This document shows, piece by piece, positions 33,029 through 57,759 of a DNA stretch of 64,000 nt. Where the stretch lies: the NCBI GenBank assembly GCA_038046805.1, contig JBBSVO010000002.1:2528-66527 (forward strand), in the 5' to 3' direction. Every line of letters starts with the position of its first letter. The stretch's first letter is position 1. The notes under the pieces were generated by a model. That model saw only the letters and a list, made by a program, of their open reading frames with translations, did no database searches and had not been told where the DNA came from. The stretch is from Candidatus Micrarchaeota archaeon. GTDB lineage: Archaea > Micrarchaeota > Micrarchaeia > Anstonellales > Bilamarchaeaceae. Position numbers and translations under genes: made by a program.

Positions 33029-33101
33029 AATAATTAGAATAAACAGGAAACAAATCCTGAAAACGTTTTTGATAAACGTTTGTAGTCTATATGGGGTGTA
33101 C

Positions 33102-33359
33102 ATGATGGGAAGTCAAAGAAGAGGCCGGGACAAACTTGTGAACTGTGAATCATGTGGAAGATCTGTGCCGCGAAACAAAGCAGTTGATTTTGAAAAAAGA
33201 AATTTTTTCAGTACTGATTTGCGCGGACAGGAGAATGTATCAACAATGTCATCAAGGCTTACCTACTATTGTATAAGCTGCGGAAAGCACAGGAAGATTT
33301 TTGAAAAGAAGAAGAAACTTGCTCAAAGACAATCTGGAAGAAATTCTGGGGTGTTCTAA
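33102..33359 (+). CDS. rps26e: Ribosomal protein eS26
   Basis: 'RRGRDKLVNCESCGRSVPRNKAV' and 'YYCISCGKHRKI' match the eS26 zinc-ribbon pattern (C..C...C..C). The start is placed at the ATG (33102). Confidence 0.7.
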   Translation: MMGSQRRGRDKLVNCESCGRSVPRNKAVDFEKRNFFSTDLRGQENVSTMSSRLTYYCISCGKHRKIFEKKKKLAQRQSGRNSGVF

Positions 33360-36255: not shown

Positions 36256-36276
36256 ACGGCTAAAACTCGGAACCAG

Positions 36277-36362
36277 AAACCAACCTTTTTATTTCCTTCC
36301 CATATCCCTTTTCTTTTGTGAAAAGAAAAGGGCTGAGGGTTTCACCCCAAAAGAAAACTCAG
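36277..36362 (+). repeat. A1+B1 module: promoter-like box 'aaaccaacctttttatttcctt' followed by a compact hairpin element
   Basis: The 22-nt A box is repeated perfectly at 36385-36406. B1 (36297-36362) contains 'cccttttctttt-gtg-aaaagaaaaggg' plus 'ctgagggtttcacccc'. It is a short version of B2 (36538-36700). Confidence 0.7.
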
Positions 36363-36384
36363 TATTAACAAAACTCAGAATGTA

Positions 36385-36406
36385 AAACCAACCTTTTTAT
36401 TTCCTT
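36385..36406 (+). promoter_or_regulatory. A2 box: likely tRNA-Val promoter (TATA-like 'ctttttattt')
   Basis: Perfect 22-nt copy of 36277-36298, ending 24 nt upstream of the tRNA 5' end. Confidence 0.45.
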
Positions 36407-36430
36407 GGTGACTTTGAATTATCTACCTTT

Positions 36431-36537
36431 GGGCCCGTAGTCGATTCCATTGCATGGTTTTCTGTGCTGTTGGCGGCAGCGGTTAAGACGTCGCTCTTAC
36501 ACAGCGAAGACGCGCGGTTCGATTCCGCGCGGGCCCA
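36431..36537 (+). tRNA. tRNA-Val (anticodon UAC) with a roughly 34-nt intron in the D-loop; no encoded CCA
   Basis: Acceptor GGGCCCG/CGGGCCC plus discriminator A. Anticodon arm UCGCU-CUUACAC-AGCGA. T arm CGCGG-UUCGAUU-CCGCG. The D stem GUCG/AGAC is interrupted after about position 14 by 36445-36478; removing it gives a 73-nt cloverleaf. Confidence 0.85.
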
Positions 36538-36700
36538 TTCCCATATCCCCTTTCTTTTAGAATCCAGGGAACAAAGTTCCCTGCCCCTCCAAAAGCTTTT
36601 CGCTTTTGAAGGAGAAAGGGGCTGAGGGGTTTACAATTCGCAAGAATTGTAAAGCTGGGAAAATCCTTTCGGATTTTCACGGATTCACCCCCAAAGAAAA
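36538..36700 (+). repeat. B2: expanded copy of the B element starting immediately at the tRNA-Val 3' end (possible co-transcribed structured RNA)
   Basis: It has the same ends as B1 ('ttcccatatccc..', '..tcaccccc-aaagaaaa'). Two insertions are each made of perfect hairpins: 'cagggaac-aaa-gttccctg', 'acaattc-gcaa-gaattgt' and 'gaaaatcc-tttc-ggattttc'. Confidence 0.6.
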
Positions 36701-36856: not shown

Positions 36857-38959
36857 ATGTCCAAGTCTAAAAACGAATACTCCGAGCTTGCCATGTACTC
36901 AGAGAAGATTACGAAAGAGGACTACAAACGCTTATTTGACACAATCATAAAGAAAAATATCCCGATCTTCGAATTCATTGATTTATCAAAAATCTTCTCT
37001 TTCAGTGGGTTCCAGATCGTGGTAAAGCGCTTCAACAACACTATAAAGATGTATTTTGGCGGCAGGTCCATAGAAGCGCACCAGCAGGCTGCCCTGTTCT
37101 TTCCGTTTAAAATCGATGCGCCAAAGGAATTGGAATTAACCAAGAGCCACTTTTCACTTAAAACCAAGTTCGTGAGCCACATCAATATGTTCGACTTTTT
37201 GATAAAAGAGGATGTGGCCGAAATACGCGTAAAAATAATGAAACTGTTCGGAAGATACTATGGATTCGGGAACTTCATATCCCAGGAAGGGGAGCGCGGC
37301 ATCCTTTATCTCTCAAATCCAACAACGTTCTTTGAAATTGATCTTGAGAAAAATCCGCAATTTTATATAGAGCTTCTTGATCCGATACCAAAGGCAGTTT
37401 ACCTTAAATCTGACGATCCAATTTTTGAGCAGGATGGAATAACGATAGGCACGGACAACTTCAGTGCAATGCAGCACAGCCTTATTGTTGGTTCTTCGGG
37501 AACTGGAAAGAGCAAATTCATAGAAATATTAATTCGCGCGATGAAAAAGCGCCACGGCCACAATTTGCGCGTTCTTGTGATAGATCCGCATGGTGAATTC
37601 TCCAAAACATTCGAAGGCGAAAAAGTAGTGGACTTCGTAGAAAACTACATCGAGCCGTTTGATATCGGAAAGGAAAAGAGCCCGCTTATTACCCAGCTTG
37701 TCGCCCAGTTAATAACCTCTACAATCAGCCAGGAGAACAAGTATGCAGAGCGCGTTGTTTTCTATGCCGTGCACATGCTTGCGGAAACAGACCAGCTTAC
37801 ACTTCAGAATATCAACCTGTTGCTCACAGACTCGGCAAAAAGAATGGAATTCAGTTCATTGTGCCACAATGACGAGGTGCGCAGGTTCTTTGATGAGGAG
37901 TTCCAAAATATTTATCTTCATCACTTTAATGATGCAATACTGCCAGTCATTAATTTCATAGGAGAATACCAGCTTTATCTCGGAAAGGCAAAAAAGCTCG
38001 AAACGCTTGAAGAACTGCTGAAAAACAACGTGGTCACGGTCGTTTCATTCAACCCGCACTATTTTGGAAGAAAAATAATCCGATTCTTTGCCGGCGCGAT
38101 CATAAACCAGATTTATATGATGGCCATAAGCGAGAAACTCACAATGCCAACAGTGCTTGTAGTGGATGAATTCCCAACTGTGGAAAGCAGGGTTACAAAG
38201 GATATTCTTGCCGAAACAAGAAAGTTCCAGCTTTACATGCATGTTTCTGCGCAGTATCTAGGCCAGCTCTCAAAGCCTGTTCTGGATGCAATAGTCAGCA
38301 ACGTACGAAACATAATTTCGTTCAAATGCACCCGTGATGATGCGCATTTCCTCGTATCTATGATGGAAATCAAGGTAGAAGAGTTCTTCAAGAAAAAAAC
38401 CAGCCCAAGCGAGCTCGAGGAATCCAAGAAGGAAATGTTTCTTAAACTCCATCCAAGGGAATGCATTGTCCGTCTTTTTGACGGTGCAAAATACATTCTT
38501 CCAATGAAGGTAAAAACTGTCAATATGGAAACCTGGAGGAATATGCCGTCGACTGGTTCGCGTCCATTCCAACCTGTTCCCCCATCATCTTCTTCCCCTA
38601 CACCTCCACCTTCATCTTCTCCATTTTCTCCACCTTCTTCTGGCGGCTTAGCTCAGCCAGCTGAGAAAACGCAGGAACCATTACAGGAAAAAGATGAACC
38701 CGGCGAGCGAGAATATAAAAAATATCTTGAAGATCAAGAGCTTGAAAAAGAATCTGGCGCTCCATCCTCCGAAGAGAAAAAACTTGAAAAATTTGAAAAA
38801 GTTGAAAACCCCCCAGAGAAATCAACAGAAAAAACCAAGCAGTCTGGAAAACCAACGGGCAAATCTAAGGAAAAAGAGAAGGAAAAAGGAAAGCGGGGCG
38901 TAAAGGTTACTTACGAAGACGAAGAGGACGAGAATCCATTCAGGAATAGGGAGATATAG
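36857..38959 (+). CDS. HerA/FtsK-superfamily ATPase (DUF87-like) with a disordered P/S- then K/E-rich C-terminal tail
   Basis: 'HSLIVGSSGTGKSKF' (Walker A), 'RVLVIDPHGEF' (HerA hallmark), 'TVLVVDEFPT' (Walker B), and 'ETRKFQLYMHVSAQYLGQL'. The last roughly 150 aa are low-complexity (PPSSSSPTPPPSSSPFSPP..., EKEKEKGKR). Confidence 0.8.
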   Translation: MSKSKNEYSELAMYSEKITKEDYKRLFDTIIKKNIPIFEFIDLSKIFSFSGFQIVVKRFNNTIKMYFGGRSIEAHQQAALFFPFKIDAPKELELTKSHFSLKTKFVSHINMFDFLIKEDVAEIRVKIMKLFGRYYGFGNFISQEGERGILYLSNPTTFFEIDLEKNPQFYIELLDPIPKAVYLKSDDPIFEQDGITIGTDNFSAMQHSLIVGSSGTGKSKFIEILIRAMKKRHGHNLRVLVIDPHGEFSKTFEGEKVVDFVENYIEPFDIGKEKSPLITQLVAQLITSTISQENKYAERVVFYAVHMLAETDQLTLQNINLLLTDSAKRMEFSSLCHNDEVRRFFDEEFQNIYLHHFNDAILPVINFIGEYQLYLGKAKKLETLEELLKNNVVTVVSFNPHYFGRKIIRFFAGAIINQIYMMAISEKLTMPTVLVVDEFPTVESRVTKDILAETRKFQLYMHVSAQYLGQLSKPVLDAIVSNVRNIISFKCTRDDAHFLVSMMEIKVEEFFKKKTSPSELEESKKEMFLKLHPRECIVRLFDGAKYILPMKVKTVNMETWRNMPSTGSRPFQPVPPSSSSPTPPPSSSPFSPPSSGGLAQPAEKTQEPLQEKDEPGEREYKKYLEDQELEKESGAPSSEEKKLEKFEKVENPPEKSTEKTKQSGKPTGKSKEKEKEKGKRGVKVTYEDEEDENPFRNREI

Positions 38960-40543
38960 ATGTTTATCCCGCCAGAACTGGAACAGGCATGGAAAAGCGC
39001 CTGCAAGATTCTTTTCAAGGAAGAAATCGGAGGTCTGGAAGAATTCGATGGCTGGTTGTCAGCCTATGCACAGACCCCTCGTTTTGAAAAATCGTCTATT
39101 TCCGGCAAAACCGTTGCTTTGGGAGTGGATTGCTTTGCGGAAAATGCCAGATTTATCAGCCATGATGAAGTGGACTTTGCAAAGAATTTCAAGCCACTTA
39201 ACATTAACGAGATAAAAGATATTGATGGTATAATTACCGCCCTTCATGAACGCTTTTATTACACTGGAAACGTGATTCTCGGGAATTCAAGCAACGTGCA
39301 GGATAGCACCGATCTGGTAAATTGCAATTACATCCACAAATCCAGCGCATCAGCAGATTCCAGATACCTCTCCAACTGTCGCTACCTTGAGGGGTGCGAA
39401 TACTGCTTTGGCGTTCTTGGCGCAATGGAAAGCAAATATGCAATCATGTGCACTGGAAGCGGGTTCACGCGCTGTTTTGAATGCCACTCCGCCCAGATAG
39501 CATCGGATTGCTATTTCTGCGGCAGCATAAAGAATTGCTCAAATTGTATGTTCTGCTTTGGAACCCAGCAACGTTCCCATATGATCGGAAATCTTCAGCT
39601 TTCAAGGGAAAAATATGAAAAACTAAAGGATAAGCTCGTGGGGGAGATCGCGCAGGAGTTAAAAGATAAAAAGAAAATTTATTCGTTCTTTGACATACTG
39701 AGGGAATGTAAGAAATACCCGCACAGAGAACTGGGTATAAAAGATACTTCTCCGGAGGAGAGGTTTGACTATGGCCCCATAGAAAAGGCATTCTCGGAAA
39801 CATCCTCGCTGCTGCTTGGAAAGCCTCTATCAAGCATAGAGGAATATTCGGCATTTCTGCAGCGGAACATCCCGGAAAACGGGAGATTGCTGTCCCCATT
39901 CAGCGGAAAATCAGTGCTTGTTGCTTCATATCGTACGCATATCTCAGACCGGTTCGAACTTGGAGGCAGGCTTCTTACGGATTTGGAAGTACGGGAGCTT
40001 GGCAATGTATGCACCGACAAAGACATAGAGAAAATGGACGCCAGCAGCCTGGCTTCGGTGTGCGAAACCATTAATTCCATTGCTTATGGCGACCTTGACA
40101 AGCAAGTGGGTAACAACAGCAACATGCTGGACGCCACTGTGGTCATCAATGCGCATGATTGCTGCCATGGTGCGGCATTCGTGTTGTGCAGGAAATGCGC
40201 GTATTGTTTTTGGCCAGCCCACTGTGAAAACGTATTCGGTTCATTCACGACGTGGCACTCCAGATTCTGCATGAAATGCTTCAACTCCAAAAACCTTACC
40301 CGCTGCTTTGAAGTGGAAAGCTCAAACAACTGCTCGGATTTATATTACTCTCATAACTGCGAAAACGTCCATAATTCCATGTTCTGCTTCAATGTAAAAA
40401 ACATGCGCAATGCCATTGGCAATGTGCAACTCGAGCCGTCGGATTATCCATCAGTTAAATCTTCGCTTATTTCACAAGTCTTTGAAGAACTGGAACGCAA
40501 AAAGAATCTCAAATGGAGTGTTTACAACCTTGGGTGCGATTAA
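38960..40543 (+). CDS. Two-module cysteine-rich repeat protein (uncharacterised family), copy 1
   Basis: The ATG directly abuts the ATPase stop (TAGATG). There is no signal peptide or TM. Each half starts 'P.E.E.A(W/F)....K(I/L)(L/I)F....G.L(E/D)E(F/Y)..(W/F)L' and ends in a Cys ladder '..NLTRCFEVESSNNCSDLYYSHNCENVHNSMFCFNVKNMRNAIGNVQL'. Confidence 0.8.
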   Translation: MFIPPELEQAWKSACKILFKEEIGGLEEFDGWLSAYAQTPRFEKSSISGKTVALGVDCFAENARFISHDEVDFAKNFKPLNINEIKDIDGIITALHERFYYTGNVILGNSSNVQDSTDLVNCNYIHKSSASADSRYLSNCRYLEGCEYCFGVLGAMESKYAIMCTGSGFTRCFECHSAQIASDCYFCGSIKNCSNCMFCFGTQQRSHMIGNLQLSREKYEKLKDKLVGEIAQELKDKKKIYSFFDILRECKKYPHRELGIKDTSPEERFDYGPIEKAFSETSSLLLGKPLSSIEEYSAFLQRNIPENGRLLSPFSGKSVLVASYRTHISDRFELGGRLLTDLEVRELGNVCTDKDIEKMDASSLASVCETINSIAYGDLDKQVGNNSNMLDATVVINAHDCCHGAAFVLCRKCAYCFWPAHCENVFGSFTTWHSRFCMKCFNSKNLTRCFEVESSNNCSDLYYSHNCENVHNSMFCFNVKNMRNAIGNVQLEPSDYPSVKSSLISQVFEELERKKNLKWSVYNLGCD

Positions 40544-42121
40544 ATGTCAGCCCCGCCAGAAATCGAAAAAGCGTTCCAGACTACTTTTAAACTTATTTTC
40601 GGGGAATGCAACGTAAAGCTGGACGAGCTTGCGGACTATCTATATCGCTGGCATTATCCGGTAATCAGGAAAAAGTCCGCGGTATCCGGAAAAGAAACCA
40701 TTATTTCATCAACTTTTTACCAGGATGGCGCCAAATTCATTTCAAACGACGAAATAGATTTCGTAAAGAAGTATGAGCCTTTCGGAATAAACGATATCAA
40801 GGATTTGGATTCCATAGTTGAAGCAATCCGGGAGCGCGACCTGGTTTATTATTCCGGAAACAAGGTTTTCGGGAATTCCAGCAATCTTCATGGAGTTGAT
40901 AATTGCACGGATGTTCATTACGGGTATCAATCGCATAATGTCGCCTCTTCAAAATTTGTCGCGTATTCCTCTTATGTCCGGTACGGAAGCGAGTATATCT
41001 TCGGCTCTGGCTGGTTCCTGAGAAGCAAGTATCTCATACGCGTTATCGGGGCAGATAATCTCACGCGTGCGTTTGAATCCTATGTGTGCGGCACCAGTTC
41101 CGATACGTTCTTTTGCTATAACTGCTTTGGCTCAAGCCATTTGATGTTTTCATTCAACCAGCGGTCAAAAAGATACTGCATAGGGAACATGGAGCTTCCG
41201 AAAGACAAGTACTTCGCTCTCCGCGAAAAGCTCATTACCGAGAGCCGCGAATACATAGAGCGGAACAAATCCTTTTATTCTATTTTTGATGTTCCGCCCG
41301 TTTCCAAGGAGCGCAAAAAGGAGATGGAATTAAACGCGCCAAAGCCAGTGCAAAGAGAGGAAAACTTAAAGCCGATTGATGACGCGTTTAGGGCAACCTC
41401 AAAAGTGATATTCGGGCAGGATATCGGCTCGCTTCAGGAAAACCGCGAGTTTCTCGTTGAGCGGGTGGTTCTCGTAGAGGACATAAAGACTGTTTTTGGC
41501 AATGACGCGTGTTATAGTCCGGTTTTCCTTTTCAGGGATATTCCAAAGCAAAGGATGATTATGCGGGATGAGGAGCAGGAAGCTTCTAAAATGCAGTTTG
41601 AAGTTGGCGAACAGGACGATCTGAAATCACTAATTCAAAAAATCCGGGATATTGCGTTTTACCGGATAGACATGTCCGAGGGCAACATCACGAACGTAAT
41701 CAAAAGCCCGCTGATTTATCATGGAATAAATGCGTATTATGTCGGAGATCTTACATTTGGAAAGAATTGTGCATATTGCACGTATGCCCTGAATGACGAG
41801 TATGTTTTCGGTTGCCACAGGTGCATCCATTCAAAATTCTGTATTCGTTGCGAGGATTCGGTCAATCTTACTGCGTGCTTTGAGATGGACAGTTGCACTA
41901 ATTGCGCTAATTCGATGTTCTGCCATAACTGCGAGAATCTGGACAATTGCATGTTCTGCTTTAATACGAAAAGTAAAAGATATGCGATTGGGAATGTTGA
42001 GGTCGGGCGCGAGGAATACATGAAAATAAAAGAACGGGTTCTTGCAGAAATCCTCATGCAGATAAAAAGCGGGCAAAGGCTGAAATGGGATATCTATAAT
42101 GTGTGGCGTAAGGAAAAATAA
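40544..42121 (+). CDS. Two-module cysteine-rich repeat protein, copy 2
   Basis: The ATG abuts the upstream stop (TAAATG). It is a paralog of copy 1: 'PPEIEKAFQTTFKLIF', 'NLTACFEMDSCTNCANSMFCHNCENLDNCMFCFNTKSKRYAIGNVEV', and the C-terminal 'LKWDIYN'. Confidence 0.8.
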   Translation: MSAPPEIEKAFQTTFKLIFGECNVKLDELADYLYRWHYPVIRKKSAVSGKETIISSTFYQDGAKFISNDEIDFVKKYEPFGINDIKDLDSIVEAIRERDLVYYSGNKVFGNSSNLHGVDNCTDVHYGYQSHNVASSKFVAYSSYVRYGSEYIFGSGWFLRSKYLIRVIGADNLTRAFESYVCGTSSDTFFCYNCFGSSHLMFSFNQRSKRYCIGNMELPKDKYFALREKLITESREYIERNKSFYSIFDVPPVSKERKKEMELNAPKPVQREENLKPIDDAFRATSKVIFGQDIGSLQENREFLVERVVLVEDIKTVFGNDACYSPVFLFRDIPKQRMIMRDEEQEASKMQFEVGEQDDLKSLIQKIRDIAFYRIDMSEGNITNVIKSPLIYHGINAYYVGDLTFGKNCAYCTYALNDEYVFGCHRCIHSKFCIRCEDSVNLTACFEMDSCTNCANSMFCHNCENLDNCMFCFNTKSKRYAIGNVEVGREEYMKIKERVLAEILMQIKSGQRLKWDIYNVWRKEK

Positions 42122-42155
42122 AACCCTATAAACCCTTTCCCTCTAATTCCAAGTC

Positions 42156-43352
42156 ATGCTCATCGGATTAGTTGGAAAGCCTTCATCAGGCAAATCCACA
42201 TTTTTCCAGGCGATTACTTCGATACCCGTAGCGCGTGCGGATTACCCGTTCACTACGATTGAGCCGAACCGCGGTGTCGCATACGTGGAAATTGAATGTG
42301 TGGACAAGGATTTCGGGGTAAAATGCAACCCGCGCACTGGATTCTGCGTGAATTCCCGCAGGTTTGCACCCGTCGAGGTTCTCGATGTTGCCGGATTGGT
42401 TCCTGGGGCACACGAGGGAAAGGGACTCGGAAATAAGTTCCTTGATGATTTGAGGCAGGCAGATTTGCTTATACATATAGTTGATGCATCTGGTTCTACA
42501 AACGAAAACGGAGAGGGCGTTACACCCGGCTCGCATGATCCGTGCAAGGATGTCCTGTTTCTTGAGGAAGAACTCACTCATTGGTTGAAGGGAATTTTGG
42601 ACAACAACTGGAATAAACTTGCGCGTGAGAGTGCATTGAACAAGAAAAACGAGGACATATTACATAATCAGTTTACCGGGCTTGGAATAAAGATCGATGC
42701 GATTCGCAGGACGCTGAACGGGCTCAATCTGATGGACAAGAAGCTTTCAGAATGGAGTGACGGGGATAAGTTTGCATTTTCAAAAAGGATGCGGGAAATC
42801 GGAAAGCCAATAATAATCGCTGCTAACAAATGCGACAAGGCAACCGCAGCTGAGAACGTTATACGGCTCAAGGAAAAATTCCCGCAATATCTCATTGTGC
42901 CTTGCTCGGCAGAGGCGGAAATCGCGCTCAAGGAAGCCGCTAAAAAAGAATTCATAGAATATGTTCCGGGGGATGACAGGTTTACAGTAAAAAAAGAACT
43001 GAATGACCAACAGAAAAAGGCAATGGACGTTCTTGCCGGAGTGTTGAGGGCATATCATAGCACAGGGGTCCAGAAAACCCTGAACGCTGCCGTGTTTGAT
43101 TTCCTCAAATACATTGCAATATTTCCAGGTGGTGTGAACAAACTGAGCGATTCCAAAGGCAATATATTGCCAGATGTATTCCTTTTACCTCCTGGTTCGA
43201 CTGCTCTGGATTTTGCGTTTACGCTACATACGGATATGGGCAGGGGATTCATAAAAGCTGTGAATGTAAAGACAAAACAACCTGTGGGAAAAGAACACCC
43301 ATTGCAGCACAGGGACGTGATTGAATTATATTTCAAGAAACCCCAGGAGTAG
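42156..43352 (+). CDS. ychF: OLA1/YchF-family GTPase/ATPase with a TGS domain
   Basis: P-loop 'GLVGKPSSGKSTFF', 'YPFTTIEPN', 'DVAGLVPGAHEG', 'AANKCD', and a C-terminal TGS-like region. Confidence 0.85.
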   Translation: MLIGLVGKPSSGKSTFFQAITSIPVARADYPFTTIEPNRGVAYVEIECVDKDFGVKCNPRTGFCVNSRRFAPVEVLDVAGLVPGAHEGKGLGNKFLDDLRQADLLIHIVDASGSTNENGEGVTPGSHDPCKDVLFLEEELTHWLKGILDNNWNKLARESALNKKNEDILHNQFTGLGIKIDAIRRTLNGLNLMDKKLSEWSDGDKFAFSKRMREIGKPIIIAANKCDKATAAENVIRLKEKFPQYLIVPCSAEAEIALKEAAKKEFIEYVPGDDRFTVKKELNDQQKKAMDVLAGVLRAYHSTGVQKTLNAAVFDFLKYIAIFPGGVNKLSDSKGNILPDVFLLPPGSTALDFAFTLHTDMGRGFIKAVNVKTKQPVGKEHPLQHRDVIELYFKKPQE

Positions 43353-52544: not shown

Positions 52545-52562
52545 TTGAAGGTGAACAAAACA

Positions 52563-53132
52563 ATGCGAGGAGCAGAAGCGATTGTTTCGAATTCACGTTT
52601 GCTTGGTCTTCCAGTCGTAATCAAGGATCGGATTCCAAAAACCTATCGCAACAAGACGCTGGACGCTAAACTCAGGACCGAAAGGACAAAACGCGAAGCT
52701 CGTCTTCTCAATAAGGCAAAGATTGCCGGAGTTCCCTGTCCTATAGTTCTGGAAGTTTCTGAATTCGGAATAACAATGACAAAAATTCGCGGAAAACGTG
52801 CGGATTTAATAAAAAATAAAAATTCCGCCAAAACTGCTGGAAAGTATCTTGCACAGCTTCATGCATCCAATCTTATTCATGGGGATTATACTCCGGCAAA
52901 TCTAATCGTCTCGTCTGGTGCATCCCAGAACCTGTTCGTTATTGATTTTGGCCTGGGATTTTTCTCCGAGGATGTGGAAGACAAGGCAATTGATGTGCTG
53001 ACAATGCTTAAGGCAATACCAGAATCCGCACAGGCGCAAAAAGCGTTTCTGAAAGGATATTCGAAATACAAAAAATATTCCGCTGTCCTGAAGAGAGTTG
53101 AGGAAGTGAAGAAAAGGGCGAGGTATGCATAG
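52563..53132 (+). CDS. bud32: KEOPS kinase Bud32 (Kae1-associated kinase)
   Basis: 'RGAEA', 'KDRIPKTYRNKTLDAKLRTERTKREARLL', 'LIHGDYTPANLIV', and 'VIDFGL'. Confidence 0.8.
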   Translation: MRGAEAIVSNSRLLGLPVVIKDRIPKTYRNKTLDAKLRTERTKREARLLNKAKIAGVPCPIVLEVSEFGITMTKIRGKRADLIKNKNSAKTAGKYLAQLHASNLIHGDYTPANLIVSSGASQNLFVIDFGLGFFSEDVEDKAIDVLTMLKAIPESAQAQKAFLKGYSKYKKYSAVLKRVEEVKKRARYA

Positions 53133-53145
53133 TTTGGGTGCGTTC

Positions 53146-53943
53146 ATGGCTATCGATCCGCAAATTCAAAAATCCTGGAAGAGCACATGCAAAATCCTGC
53201 TAAAGGAAGAGATTGGAAACCTTGAGGATTACGAGGAATGGCTGCTTAATTATGTTAATCCGGTGAGTTTCAAGAAATCCGCATTATCTGGAAAGGATGT
53301 AATCGTTTCATCGGAAAAAGCGTGCAGGGGTGCAAAATATCTCGGGCATGCAGAAGTTGAGCAGTACCTGAAGGGCATTGGCACTGCAAAGTTTAACATA
53401 AACGATCTGAAGGATATCGATTCAGCGGTCGGGGCGCTTCAGGAAAGAGCATATTATATCGGAAACGTTGTTCTCGGCAACTCACAAAATGTTGAGATCG
53501 CTAACCGTTGCATCAATTCCTCATTCATTTACAAGACGCAGGACGTTTACGACTGTAAGTTTGTTGCATGCTCTTCTGTCCTCCGGTTTGCGGAATATAT
53601 TTTTGGTGGCAATGCGATTGGTGAAGCGAGCCGGTACAATATAAAAACGTTTGAAACCTACAAGAACGTCCGTTGCATGGAGACAATCCGCAATTATGTT
53701 GCGTCTGACTGCTATTTCACCGGAAGTTTGGAAAGCTGCGGCAACTGCATGTTTTCTTTCAACCAGCGGAACAAGAATTACATGATTGGGAACCACCAAT
53801 TCTCGCAGGAGGAATACCTGAAGCTGAAGGATAAGCTGATTGAGGATATCAGGGAAACGCTCAAGGCAAAGAAAAATCTGCCGTCACTGATAGATATAAT
53901 AAATGGCAGTAACACCGATTCGGGAGGTATCGTCAATGGATGA
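53146..53943 (+). CDS. Cysteine-rich repeat protein, single N-type module (copy 3a)
   Basis: 'MAIDPQIQKSWKSTCKILLKEEIGNLEDYEEWL' parallels the N-termini of 38960 and 40544. It ends in a degenerate ladder, 'CYFTGSLESCGNCMFSFNQRNKNYMIGNHQF'. Confidence 0.75.
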   Translation: MAIDPQIQKSWKSTCKILLKEEIGNLEDYEEWLLNYVNPVSFKKSALSGKDVIVSSEKACRGAKYLGHAEVEQYLKGIGTAKFNINDLKDIDSAVGALQERAYYIGNVVLGNSQNVEIANRCINSSFIYKTQDVYDCKFVACSSVLRFAEYIFGGNAIGEASRYNIKTFETYKNVRCMETIRNYVASDCYFTGSLESCGNCMFSFNQRNKNYMIGNHQFSQEEYLKLKDKLIEDIRETLKAKKNLPSLIDIINGSNTDSGGIVNG

Positions 53944-54799
53944 AATCAGATTCATCGAAGAGCAAGCTCATTCGAAAAATACTCGCGAAGTCGCCACAAA
54001 ATTTCCAAATGTACAAACCGAATCCGAATCCAGCGACTTCACGATCGAATCTGCATTCCAGAGTACTAGTGAAATTCTGCTTGGGAAGCGGCTCACAAAT
54101 CTACAATCATATCGTGAATGGCTGCTCGAGTATGTAGGAGAATCTGTCCGCACGAAGTCCGAAATAAGCGGAAAAACAATTTATGTTCCGGATATCATGT
54201 TCTTCAGTGCGATAAAAAGGAACATGGTTACGCTTGAAGAGTCGCTTGAGCTTGCAAAAAAACAGATTTCCGAGTCAGATGCCAGAAGCCTTACTCTTTC
54301 AAACGCATCCAAAAAACTGGAGAACGTGAAATTCATAACCTCGGATGTTATGCTTGGCCAAAATCTCGACCTGCGGGAAACTTCCACGTGCATGAATGCC
54401 CAGCACTGCCTTGACGGGTATTGGTACATTTATTCAAAGTGCGATGCCTATTGCGCATGGCCAAGGGAAACAGAATATTCATTCGGCAGCTATTTTCTGT
54501 TTGCATCCAAGTTCTGCATAAAGTGCCATAATTCCGTTGCCCTTACAAGATGCTTTGAAGTTAGCGATTCGGCAAATTGCACTGACTGCTATTTCTGCCA
54601 CAATTGCGAGGCATTAAGCAATTGCATGTTCTGTTTTAATGTGAAAAGCATGCGATACGCGATTGGAAATATTGAAATCGGGCGGGAAAAATTCATGGAA
54701 ATAAAAACACGTTTACTCGGGCAGGTTGCAGACGAACTGAAAAAAAATAAGCGGTTGGATTTGAGTATATATAATTTTGGATGTTGGAAAATAAAGTAA
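53936..54799 (+). CDS. Cysteine-rich repeat protein, single C-type module (copy 3b)
   Basis: The ATG overlaps the 3a stop (ATGGATGA). 'IESAFQSTSEILLGKRLTNLQSYREWL' and 'ALTRCFEVSDSANCTDCYFCHNCEALSNCMFCFNVKSMRYAIGNIEI' match the second halves of the fused copies. Confidence 0.75.
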   Translation: MDEIRFIEEQAHSKNTREVATKFPNVQTESESSDFTIESAFQSTSEILLGKRLTNLQSYREWLLEYVGESVRTKSEISGKTIYVPDIMFFSAIKRNMVTLEESLELAKKQISESDARSLTLSNASKKLENVKFITSDVMLGQNLDLRETSTCMNAQHCLDGYWYIYSKCDAYCAWPRETEYSFGSYFLFASKFCIKCHNSVALTRCFEVSDSANCTDCYFCHNCEALSNCMFCFNVKSMRYAIGNIEIGREKFMEIKTRLLGQVADELKKNKRLDLSIYNFGCWKIK

Positions 54800-55214: not shown

Positions 55215-56219
55215 ATGGAGATTTCAAAATTTATTAAAAAACTCCCAAAGGCAGAGTTACATATTCACATAGAAGGGACACTTGAACCGGAGCTTCTATT
55301 TTCTATCGCAAAGAGAAATGGGATACATCCTAAGTATTCAAATGTCCGGGCTCTGAAGAGGGCATACAACTTTAGAAATTTACAGGATTTCCTTGATATT
55401 TACTATGAAGGATGTAGGGTCTTGCGTACAAGTAGGGATTTCTATGAATTGACATTGGCTTATTTTTCGAAAGCACACACACAAGGACTACGGCATGCAG
55501 AGCTTTTTTTTGACCCGCAGACTCACACGTCAAGAGGAATACCATTTCGTGTAGCTATTGAAGGAATTCATATGGGTTGCGTAGAAGCACGCAAACGGTT
55601 TTCCATATCTTCAAAAATCATCATGTGCTTCTTAAGACATCTATCCGAAAGAGAAGCGATTGAAACACTAGAAGAATCTTTGCCTTATCGAAAATGGATT
55701 GATGCGATTGGACTTGATTCCTCAGAACAAGGAAACCCTCCTTCAAAATTTAGACACGTATTTTCTCAAGCACGAAAAGCCGGCTTTCTAACAGTTGCTC
55801 ATGCTGGGGAAGAGGGACCTGCATCATATGTTAGTGAAGCAATCTCTCTATTGAAAGTATCAAGAATTGACCATGGGAATCATGCACTTGATAATAAAAA
55901 ACTTGTTAAGTATTTGGCAAAAAAAAGAATACCTTTAACAGTCTGCCCGCTTTCAAACCTCAAATTGTGCGTAGTTAAAGATCTTCGAAAACATCCCCTA
56001 AAAACGATGCTACTGGCAAAACTTTTAGTTACCATTAATTCAGATGATCCAGCTTATTTTGGGGGATATATTGGAGATAACTATCAGGCCATACAAAAAG
56101 CCATTAAACTTACAAATAAAGAATTAGTACAATTGGCAAAAAATTCTATCGAAGCGTCATTTCTAACACATACAAGGAAAAAATATTTGATGCGGCTTAT
56201 TGATCAATATGCAGAATAA
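55215..56219 (+). CDS. Adenine deaminase of the adenosine-deaminase superfamily (bacterial/eukaryotic ADE type)
   Basis: 'LPKAELHIHIEGTLEPELLF', 'FFDPQTHTSRGIPF', 'GLDSSE.GNPPSKF', 'TVAHAGEEGP', 'SRIDHG', 'PLTVCPLSN', 'INSDDPAYFGGY'. It is collinear with bacterial adenine deaminases as I remember them. Confidence 0.85.
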   Translation: MEISKFIKKLPKAELHIHIEGTLEPELLFSIAKRNGIHPKYSNVRALKRAYNFRNLQDFLDIYYEGCRVLRTSRDFYELTLAYFSKAHTQGLRHAELFFDPQTHTSRGIPFRVAIEGIHMGCVEARKRFSISSKIIMCFLRHLSEREAIETLEESLPYRKWIDAIGLDSSEQGNPPSKFRHVFSQARKAGFLTVAHAGEEGPASYVSEAISLLKVSRIDHGNHALDNKKLVKYLAKKRIPLTVCPLSNLKLCVVKDLRKHPLKTMLLAKLLVTINSDDPAYFGGYIGDNYQAIQKAIKLTNKELVQLAKNSIEASFLTHTRKKYLMRLIDQYAE

Positions 56220-57194: not shown

Positions 57195-57498
57195 GAGCCA
57201 AAACGCAACATGTCCGAGACGCGAAACTCGGAACCGGAAACGCTTTTGTCTAAGCCACGCTCCGTCGCCATACATCGGCGCTGTAGCGTGTCTGCTCCAC
57301 CCTGTGAACTTACAAGCACAGAGAAATAAACTTATGGCTGCTCCTTTCGGTCTGACCAGATTCGCGTATTCCTCTGCCATATAAGGCAGGGTTTCGACGC
57401 TTACGGAAAAGGGCGCAACAGATTCTCGCAACGCCCGGGGCATTCGGTCCGTCTAAAGGGGATTTACGGTGCCGGGACCCCTAGCCCCGACCTAGCCC
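57195..57498 (-). ncRNA. SRP RNA (7S RNA); ends approximate (+/- 15 nt)
   Basis: The minus strand at 57360-57331 reads 'CUGGUCAGACC-GAAA-GGAGCAGCCAUAAG'. This is the universally conserved helix-8 motif (compare E. coli 4.5S 'GGUCAGGUCCGGAAGGAAGCAGCCAAGG') with a GNRA loop. The 5' end 'GGGCUAGGUCGGGGCUAGGGGUCCC' is G-rich, and 'UUUGGCUC' near 57195 can pair with it. The length of about 304 nt is typical of archaea. A/T-rich promoter boxes lie at 57505-57540. Only short overlapping ORFs occur here. Confidence 0.8.
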
Positions 57499-57759
57499 AG
57501 TAAGTATATGTTATAATAAGGTAATTAAGGTTTATGTAATGGGTTTCGGGTCTTCAGTTCCGCGTTTTGGAAGATAATTATTTATGGTCTCGCATTATGT
57601 GTTCCGAGCGCAAGAGTGTTTGCTAGTAAACCTCTATGGTTTTTGGCAAGTGCCCGTCCTTGTCCTAATATATTTGAAATCCAAAAGGCTTGTGGCACGC
57701 AGATTTAAAAAGAAATTGCTCTATATTCCATCATTCGACCAGATATTTCGGGTGAAACA

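Follow-up and report, generated by a model that had tools for sequence, protein, structure and literature searches.

The ATPase/A-B locus of a Micrarchaeota genome

We analyzed a 64,000-nucleotide (nt) stretch of DNA from a Candidatus Micrarchaeota archaeon (GenBank assembly GCA_038046805.1, contig JBBSVO010000002.1, positions 2,528 to 66,527), referred to below as the window, in which a gene for a P-loop ATPase is followed directly by two genes for cysteine-rich proteins, Cys1 and Cys2. Each of the two proteins is built of two related modules, A and B, and the family that they represent is here called the A-B family. The three open reading frames (ORFs; 700, 527, and 525 amino acids [aa]) lie exactly where an earlier note, made from the sequence alone, had placed them, and they abut with zero spacer bases at the junctions ...ATATAG/ATG... 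(TAGATG) and ...GATTAA/ATG... (TAAATG). Judged from its sequence and position, the element TTTTAAAAAA is likely a promoter, and the putative three-gene transcript would be leaderless.

The locus is very probably a chromosomal module that has been kept across the Micrarchaeota and that combines one soluble ring-type translocase with tandem arrays of a new family of A and B modules. Comparison across genomes bore out the expectation that the cysteine-rich family is linked to the ATPase: an A-B array adjoins the ATPase gene in 14 of the 15 ATPase-centered loci with enough flanking sequence (13 of 14 after removal of one duplicate contig), and the same adjacency is seen in loci L004, L084, L085, and L087. 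The single exception, L086, has no A-B gene within 10 kb of the ATPase, and profile hidden Markov models detected no diverged A-B copy there. The linkage between the ATPase and the A-B family is real. The coordinates of all features are collected in Table 1.

Table 1. Features of the window, with two comparison genes from related loci (nucleotide positions; window coordinates unless another locus is named)
Feature	Position	Strand	Remarks
Ribosomal protein S26e gene, then DUF1805	33069-33359	+	Pair also upstream of the ATPase in L084 and L085
tRNA-Val(TAC)	~36432-36537	+	~30-nt D-loop insertion
Candidate TATA-like box TTTTAAAAAA	36823-36832	+	~30 nt 5′ of the ATPase ATG; found by eye
ATPase ORF	36857-38959	+	700 aa; soluble FtsK/HerA/VirD4-superfamily P-loop ATPase
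Walker A, GSSGTGKS	37490-37513	+	aa 212-219; invariant in 46 orthologues
Walker B, VVDEFP	38159-38176	+	aa 435-440; D437 and E438 invariant in 46 orthologues
ATPase C-terminal low-complexity tail	38540-38956	+	P/S block, then K/E blocks; from ~aa 562
Cys1, fused A-B	38960-40543	+	527 aa; A ~aa 1-255, linker ~256-268, B ~269-527
Cys2, fused A-B paralogue	40544-42121	+	525 aa; A module has lost most ladder cysteines
Stand-alone A-module gene	53125-53943	+	Likely start 53146; tblastn E = 8e-57; A-profile hmmsearch E = 2e-119
Stand-alone B-module gene	53903-54799	+	Homology from ~54035; 41-nt overlap with the A gene, in a different frame
PALP enzyme, example 1	L004 9730-11133		
PALP enzyme, example 2	L111 9609-11081		

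A distinct ATPase of the FtsK/HerA/VirD4 superfamily

The ATPase belongs to the FtsK/HerA/VirD4 superfamily, within which it is a distinct, soluble, and highly conserved protein. It comprises an N-terminal alpha/beta domain (aa 1 to 200), a P-loop core interrupted by an all-alpha insertion (aa 200 to 560), and a disordered tail, and the motifs that the earlier note had singled out (GSSGTGKS, IDPHGEF at aa 242 to 248, and VVDEFP) are all present, as is the proline/serine-rich and then lysine/glutamate-rich tail. Two Pfam models score above threshold, DUF87 (45.8 bits; cutoff, 23.2) and TrwB_AAD_bind (36.1 bits; cutoff, 20.5; aa 204 to 471). More specific models were not reached by the protein, including the HerA equivalog NF040819 (16.6 versus 970 bits), the antiphage HerA model NF042943 (HerA_antiphage; 26.3 versus 800), TraD_Ftype (22.6 versus 521), VirB4 (19.3 versus 643), EccCb (18.6 versus 346), EccCa (14.8 versus 509), and the CedD model NF053655 (30.9 versus 600), the best-scoring part of which covers only the P-loop region (aa 195 to 259). 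The Pfam scan found no HAS-barrel (PF09378) at an E value of ≤1. PADLOC returned weak matches to HerA and mad8 (7e-12 for mad8), which are confined to the ATPase.

The AlphaFold2 (AF2) model of the ATPase has a predicted local distance difference test (pLDDT) score of 82. In a Foldseek search it matched HerA (E = 9e-12 to 1e-10) and TrwB, VirB4, and DndH-C (E of about 1e-10), all with a probability of 1.00, and HerA-NurA and SIR2-HerA were placed about level with these. The tightest superpositions, with a root mean square deviation (rmsd) of about 6 Å, are to TrwB (target-normalized TM-score of about 0.58) and DndH-C; full-length HerA was aligned, yet with an rmsd of about 14 Å. The label "HerA-type" given to the protein in the earlier note is thus too specific, since the HerA equivalog is far from its cutoff, the HAS-barrel is missing from the matches, and TrwB, VirB4, and DndH-C are equally near. 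Relative L004 encodes a separate, canonical HerA-like protein with a HAS-barrel and a DUF87 domain.

Orthologues of the ATPase share 50 to 80% identity across the Micrarchaeota and range from 556 to 956 aa in length. Their tails are rich in glutamate, lysine, and proline where they can be delimited, and they contain no Pfam domains. No membrane helix was found among 120 orthologues, in which the only hydrophobic peaks (Kyte-Doolittle values of ≤1.82) fall inside the folded N-terminal domain or the core and none lies at the N terminus.

An undescribed family of two-module, cysteine-rich proteins

Cys1 is a paralogue of Cys2 (32% identity; E = 1e-88), and their A and B halves are homologous to each other over the full length (profile-profile hhalign probability, 100%; E = 1.5e-51). 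These relationships go well beyond what chance would give, which upholds the internally duplicated, paralogous pair described from the sequence. Each module has a predicted N-terminal helical hairpin, a small mixed domain with an invariant KDxD motif, a ladder, and a long C-terminal helix. Cysteine makes up 5.7% of Cys1 (30 residues) and 3.8% of Cys2 (20 residues), compared with an average of 1.2% in the other long ORFs of the window. The proteins carry neither a signal peptide nor a membrane helix, as had been proposed: the highest 19-residue hydropathy among 174 full-length members is 1.67, and only 2 of them exceed 1.6. The median isoelectric point (pI) is 7.3, showing no basic bias, and in 77% of members the C-terminal tail carries a net positive charge. 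The N- and C-terminal motifs are conserved, and the middles of the proteins are variable.

The six modules counted in the earlier note are accounted for by a third A/B pair (53125 to 54799) in addition to those of Cys1 and Cys2. This third unit, 11 kb from the ATPase, is split into stand-alone A and B genes and lies between a 195-aa kinase-like ORF (52545 to 53132) and a 334-aa ORF (55215 to 56219).

The ladder consists of about 9 to 10 nonapeptide rungs of the form x-N-C-x-[DEN]-V/L-x-x-S, in which the inward-facing positions are held by Cys, Ser, or aliphatic residues. Its cysteines recur at every third residue and, in alignment columns of the 174 full-length members, are freely replaced by Ser, Val, Leu, or Ala. 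This exchangeability suggests a structural, solenoid-like ladder rather than a set of metal sites. Gly, Phe, and Asn account for most of the invariant residues, which also include K86, D87, D89, R171, E174, D183, R448, E451, H465, N466, and E468. Only C476 (98%) is a near-invariant cysteine, and C458, C467, and H465 are conserved at 80 to 90%. It is these four positions, together with the cysteine content of 4 to 6%, many CxxC spacings, and a weak zf-CXXC match in one relative, that would favor A-B proteins as metal-binding (Zn or Fe-S) redox or storage proteins. We consider such a role, which the earlier note had also raised, very improbable: the ladder positions tolerate residues that do not fit it, most cysteines are gone from the A module of Cys2, and the conserved cysteines are spaced 9 residues, or one repeat, apart, so that they would stack on successive rungs instead of forming a single site. 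Cysteine columns 60 and 526, which are 466 residues apart, tend to be filled together (phi = 0.78), perhaps because of a disulfide or a tight contact joining the C terminus of B with the A module. The AF2 model of Cys1 is confident (pLDDT, 81.9; predicted template modeling score [pTM], 0.85), and its pTM indicates a defined packing of A against B in the predicted fused protein.

Searches of Pfam, NCBIfam, and PADLOC with the window proteins and 53 family members gave no match, and the Cys1 model had no fold match below E = 0.6 in the Protein Data Bank (PDB) and BFVD (Foldseek). Single-sequence and profile searches of PDB sequences yielded only noise (14-3-3, E = 0.11; ZMYND8, E = 0.02), and PHROGs gave a weak match to phrog_15341 (E = 1.5e-5) limited to the ladder region. 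The earlier note had not recognized the family, and no known family or fold has been found for it here. No relatives were detected in phage or plasmid records (tblastn) or in IMG/VR (profile scan), so the A-B family is not viral or plasmid-borne. The literature yielded no description of it; a 2026 "CysRRep" preprint names Micrarchaeota only in passing, and its repeat motif was not compared with that of the ladder. The A-B family is previously undescribed and new at the fold level.

Distribution, array architecture, and divergence

All relatives identified come from Micrarchaeota (class Micrarchaeia, Anstonellales included). GTDB species representatives contain 442 stretches that encode relatives of the A-B proteins, with Micrarchaeota as the source of all those listed. 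A representative library holds 343 A-B clusters at an E value of ≤1e-30, and the best 150 of the 1,891 matches from a profile search of this library are all family members, full-length or partial.

Architecture was counted in 128 fetched loci, some of which overlap. Adjacent same-strand modules alternate A then B at 405 of 406 junctions, and the A-B units are fused in 226 cases (about 530 aa) and split in 43 (about 255 plus 265 aa). One metagenomic protein, P0053 (730 aa), is an A-B-B triple-module fusion, and the strict A-B unit therefore has rare variants. Arrays contain from 1 to about 10 units. In one Micrarchaeia metagenome-assembled genome (MAG), at least 15 A-B units, or about 24 kb, are spread over two contigs that together make up about 1 Mb; DPANN genomes are tiny, yet this one keeps so many units beside a motor ATPase with 50 to 80% identity across the group, which implies an important lineage-specific function. 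Within an array, paralogues share about 41% identity, whereas their best matches elsewhere reach about 60%, from which it follows that they are ancient and differentiated. A lineage-specific arms-race expansion was considered and rejected, since the closer relatives of array members are found in other genomes and not in their own array.

The closest genome is the MAG UBA10214 (L006), in which the flanks of the locus are 83 to 92% identical in nucleotide sequence and the gene order is swapped to ATPase-Cys2-Cys1. The synonymous divergence (dS) of the A-B genes from this relative is saturated, at 2.2 to 2.7, with a ratio of nonsynonymous to synonymous divergence (dN/dS) of 0.04 to 0.05, and the A-B cassette is still under purifying selection. 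Most flanking genes have a dS of 0.3 to 0.9, and the downstream GTPase and SPFH genes have values of 1.3 to 1.4. The ATPase core is 97% identical to its counterpart, with a dN/dS of 0.024 that denotes strong purifying selection, and the tail is 59% identical. The diverged tract as a whole (38205 to 42900; dS of 1.4 to 2.7) includes the two A-B genes, the tail of the ATPase on one side of them, and the first part of the GTPase gene on the other. With its high dS and swapped order, the cassette between the motor and the GTPase looks to have been replaced by recombination or to be anciently polymorphic. In ENA contig_2408 (L129), about 99% identical to the window, the ATPase and A-B genes are fragmented (265, 252, 472, and 325 aa), probably through frameshift errors of that assembly.

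Ancient, differentiated paralogues with orthologues across genomes, under strong purifying selection and strictly paired as A and B, are what would be expected if the A-B proteins were building blocks of a cytoplasmic or envelope-associated hetero-oligomer, such as a solenoid scaffold or a filament, which the ATPase assembles or remodels. The repeats and terminal helices would also suit end-to-end association. A range of one to about ten units per locus is odd for a fixed structure, however, and Foldseek found no match to bactofilin or other polymer folds, and we regard this explanation as unlikely.

Linkage, neighbors, and chromosomal setting

The nearest module lies downstream and convergent to the ATPase gene in 42 cases, upstream and co-directional in 10, downstream and co-directional (as in the window) in 6, and upstream and divergent in 2. 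Adjacency is thus kept through varied orientations, which shows that the linkage is conserved and that translational coupling, put forward in the earlier note as a property of the system, is local to this lineage. When the A-B loci are taken as the starting point, the ATPase gene is within 10 kb of 25 of the 83, as expected for a multicopy family beside an apparently single ATPase gene.

The same data bear on whether the two are functionally connected at all. The ATPase could be a housekeeping DNA translocase next to which an unrelated A-B family, perhaps enzymatic, has expanded at a recombination-prone site. The lack of a nearby ATPase at most A-B loci, the absence of A-B genes around the ATPase of L086, the prevailing convergent orientation, and the signs of cassette replacement are all compatible with this. 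Adjacency in 14 of 15 loci, among relatives down to about 50% identity and with differing flanks and orientations, would be hard to maintain without selection, and the lack of any functional link therefore seems quite unlikely.

Two other gene types, and only these, recur in the neighborhood: genes for helix-turn-helix (HTH) regulators are found in 27 loci and those for a PALP enzyme in 16, and neither type is in this window. The regulators are double HTH_AsnC/HTH_24 proteins of about 328 aa encoded inside the A-B arrays (e.g., L084, 17859 to 18845 and 20560 to 21555). In one subclade, the PALP enzyme, which is pyridoxal phosphate dependent and has a C-terminal membrane helix and a cysteine-containing tail, is encoded immediately next to the ATPase and in some cases occurs in three copies.

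In the window, the locus is flanked by genes for a Metallophos-family phosphoesterase, S26e, DUF1805, TBP, L21e, Rpb4, and DUF655 and then by those for an Obg-like GTPase, CutA, and PurE. Synteny extends to distant relatives, in which either S26e-DUF1805 precedes the ATPase gene or PurE-Gcd14 follows it. Housekeeping flanks and preserved synteny place the locus in the core chromosome and not in a defense or accessory island, and the defense-island idea was rejected on these grounds. The tRNA-Val and duplicated elements that the earlier note had reported upstream of the ATPase are real; the accessory-DNA location that it had read from them does not agree with the housekeeping flanks and the synteny. 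Its defense framing fares no better, because multicopy arrays of ancient paralogues in core synteny are a misfit for a one-effector defense module.

This setting also weighs on the proposal that the A-B pseudodimers bind to the ATPase ring as partners or adaptors and work together with it on DNA, with the paralogues providing different specificities. The best folds for the ATPase (HerA, HerA-NurA, SIR2-HerA, DndH-C, and TrwB) all belong to DNA-handling motors, PADLOC gave its weak mad8 and HerA matches, and the ATPase gene is near those for Cdc6 and SepF in some genomes. The two-fold pseudosymmetric A-B protein resembles the NurA dimer, which sits on HerA, and Sir2 and DUF4297 effectors on defense HerA provide further parallels. 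On the other hand, Pfam, NCBIfam, and PADLOC disclosed no nuclease, Sir2, or DNA-binding signature in A-B proteins, whose median pI lacks a basic bias. Numbers as high as about 10 units in an array and 15 or more in a genome are unsuited to a stoichiometric partner, the arrays mostly converge with the ATPase gene instead of forming one operon with it, and the context is one of housekeeping genes with no defense island. A role as DNA-acting partners is, in our estimate, rather doubtful.

Elements upstream of the ATPase gene

ARAGORN and Rfam miss the tRNA-Val(TAC) gene because of its D-loop insertion, and ARAGORN does detect it when the insert is deleted computationally; the insert is probably a noncanonical intron. 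ARAGORN found no tRNA in the whole 64 kb, and other intron-bearing tRNAs may therefore be hidden. Around this gene (36262 to 36634), a 37-nt promoter-like element (...AAACCAACCTTTTTATTTCCTT) is present in two copies, 108 nt apart, as is a hairpin element (CCCATATCCC...GGGCTGAGGG), the second copy of which has a 57-nt loop insert. UBA10214 lacks the first copy, which suggests that a small duplication or insertion took place recently. The signal recognition particle (SRP) RNA gene at 57250 to 57500 on the minus strand is best matched by the Rfam model Bacteria_large_SRP (66 bits) and not by an archaeal one, despite the archaeal genome.

A-B proteins as candidate clients of the ATPase

The reading that we favor, with a probability of roughly 35%, is that the ATPase handles A-B pseudoheterodimers as clients for translocation, export, or assembly. 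It is favored because of the ATPase linkage, the strict A/B pairing, the ring-translocase fold, and the high conservation of the ATPase, with strong purifying selection on its core; because A-B proteins lack signal peptides and membrane helices and combine conserved termini with variable middles, basic tails, and the paired cysteines 60 and 526; and because their cysteine content is 4% against a background of 1.2% and a variable region lies beside a conserved motor.

Under this scheme, the ATPase hexamer would recognize a conserved A-B terminus, for which there are two candidate signals, the N-terminal helix "AWK.TCK.LF..E.G.L..Y..WL" and the C-terminal motif "LKWDIYNIG" with its short basic tail. 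ATP would then be used to translocate, export, or assemble the pseudoheterodimers, the many ancient paralogues would be alternative clients, and the transcription factors embedded in the arrays would set which clients are made. Such an arrangement, which we propose with low confidence, would resemble that of EccC/EssC with paired Esx substrates or of VirD4 coupling proteins with their effectors. It is also possible, if somewhat unlikely, that the VirD4/HerA-like hexamer delivers diverse A-B heterodimers outside the cytoplasm or into a larger assembly, e.g., at the cell surface or at cell-cell contacts.

Several observations weigh against A-B proteins as clients. The survey of recurrent neighbors found no membrane channel or other widely conserved partner near the ATPase, and the absence of a nearby membrane component is the main weakness of this interpretation; the ATPase itself has no membrane segment, and its nearest structural relatives in Foldseek are mostly DNA translocases. 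An ATPase gene is missing within 10 kb of 58 of the 83 A-B loci. Ancient paralogues suit differentiated subunits as well as alternative clients. The rationale of host interaction is weakened by the Anstonellales, an order that contains relatives of the ATPase and has been discussed as less host-dependent (PMC12892359).

If the hexamer does deliver A-B heterodimers in this way, the locus would be a previously unrecognized ATP-driven system for handling proteins and an archaeal functional analogue of the type VII secretion system (T7SS) or of the pairing of type IV coupling proteins (T4CPs) with effectors, with an entirely new substrate fold. Translocation of A-B proteins by the ATPase would represent a new archaeal protein-trafficking route, and A-B adaptors on a DNA pump would represent a novel means by which a translocase is diversified. 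Both outcomes offer a concrete, testable entry into the cell biology of Micrarchaeota.

Comparison with known systems

HerA-NurA, SIR2-HerA, and DUF4297-HerA share with this locus a hexameric motor of the FtsK/HerA superfamily with a DUF87 domain and a dedicated partner encoded next door. They differ in that the partner here is unrelated to known effectors, is without a PADLOC match, and occurs in arrays. No Sir2 or nuclease gene neighbors the ATPase, and the NurA, Mre11, and Rad50 cluster was found neither in the window flanks nor among the recurrent neighbors of the 128 loci.

The T4CPs TrwB, VirD4, and TraD have in common with the ATPase the TrwB_AAD_bind domain and an all-alpha insertion in the nucleotide-binding domain. 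They recognize substrates by C-terminal, often basic signals, and the tails of A-B proteins are mostly basic. T4CPs, however, have an N-terminal membrane anchor and a conjugative context with a relaxase and a type IV secretion system (T4SS), whereas the ATPase has no anchor and is encoded in the chromosomal core; no relaxase, VirB4, or other T4SS genes were found near it in the window flanks or among the recurrent neighbors.

The likeness to the T7SS, in which EccC/EssC act with Esx/WXG100 proteins, is an analogy of possible working only. There, too, an FtsK-like motor is encoded beside tandem pairs, which give obligate heterodimers; the paired proteins lack signal peptides and have expanded to multiple copies, and the conserved motor is followed by a variable region. 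The ATPase departs from this pattern in its single ATPase domain and its lack of membrane helices, and the A-B proteins do so in their repeat modules of about 260 aa as opposed to helical hairpins of about 100 aa. Homologues of EccB, EccD, EccE, and EssA/EssB are absent. To our knowledge, the T7SS is known only from bacteria.

For the A-B ladder itself, the left-handed beta-helix (LbH) is the nearest candidate comparison, with several weak Foldseek matches (GlmU and RicA in the PDB; WbbJ- and PglD-like proteins in BFVD), all at an E value of ≥5. It differs from that fold in the absence of any Pfam Hexapep match in 53 members and in a period of 3 within a 9-residue unit instead of a period of 6.

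Since each of these comparisons (HerA, T4CP, T7SS, defense HerA, and LbH) fails in at least one defining feature, the locus can be filed only under the FtsK/HerA/VirD4 superfamily, together with a new partner family. The partnership of the ATPase with A-B proteins is a new type of gene neighborhood for that superfamily.

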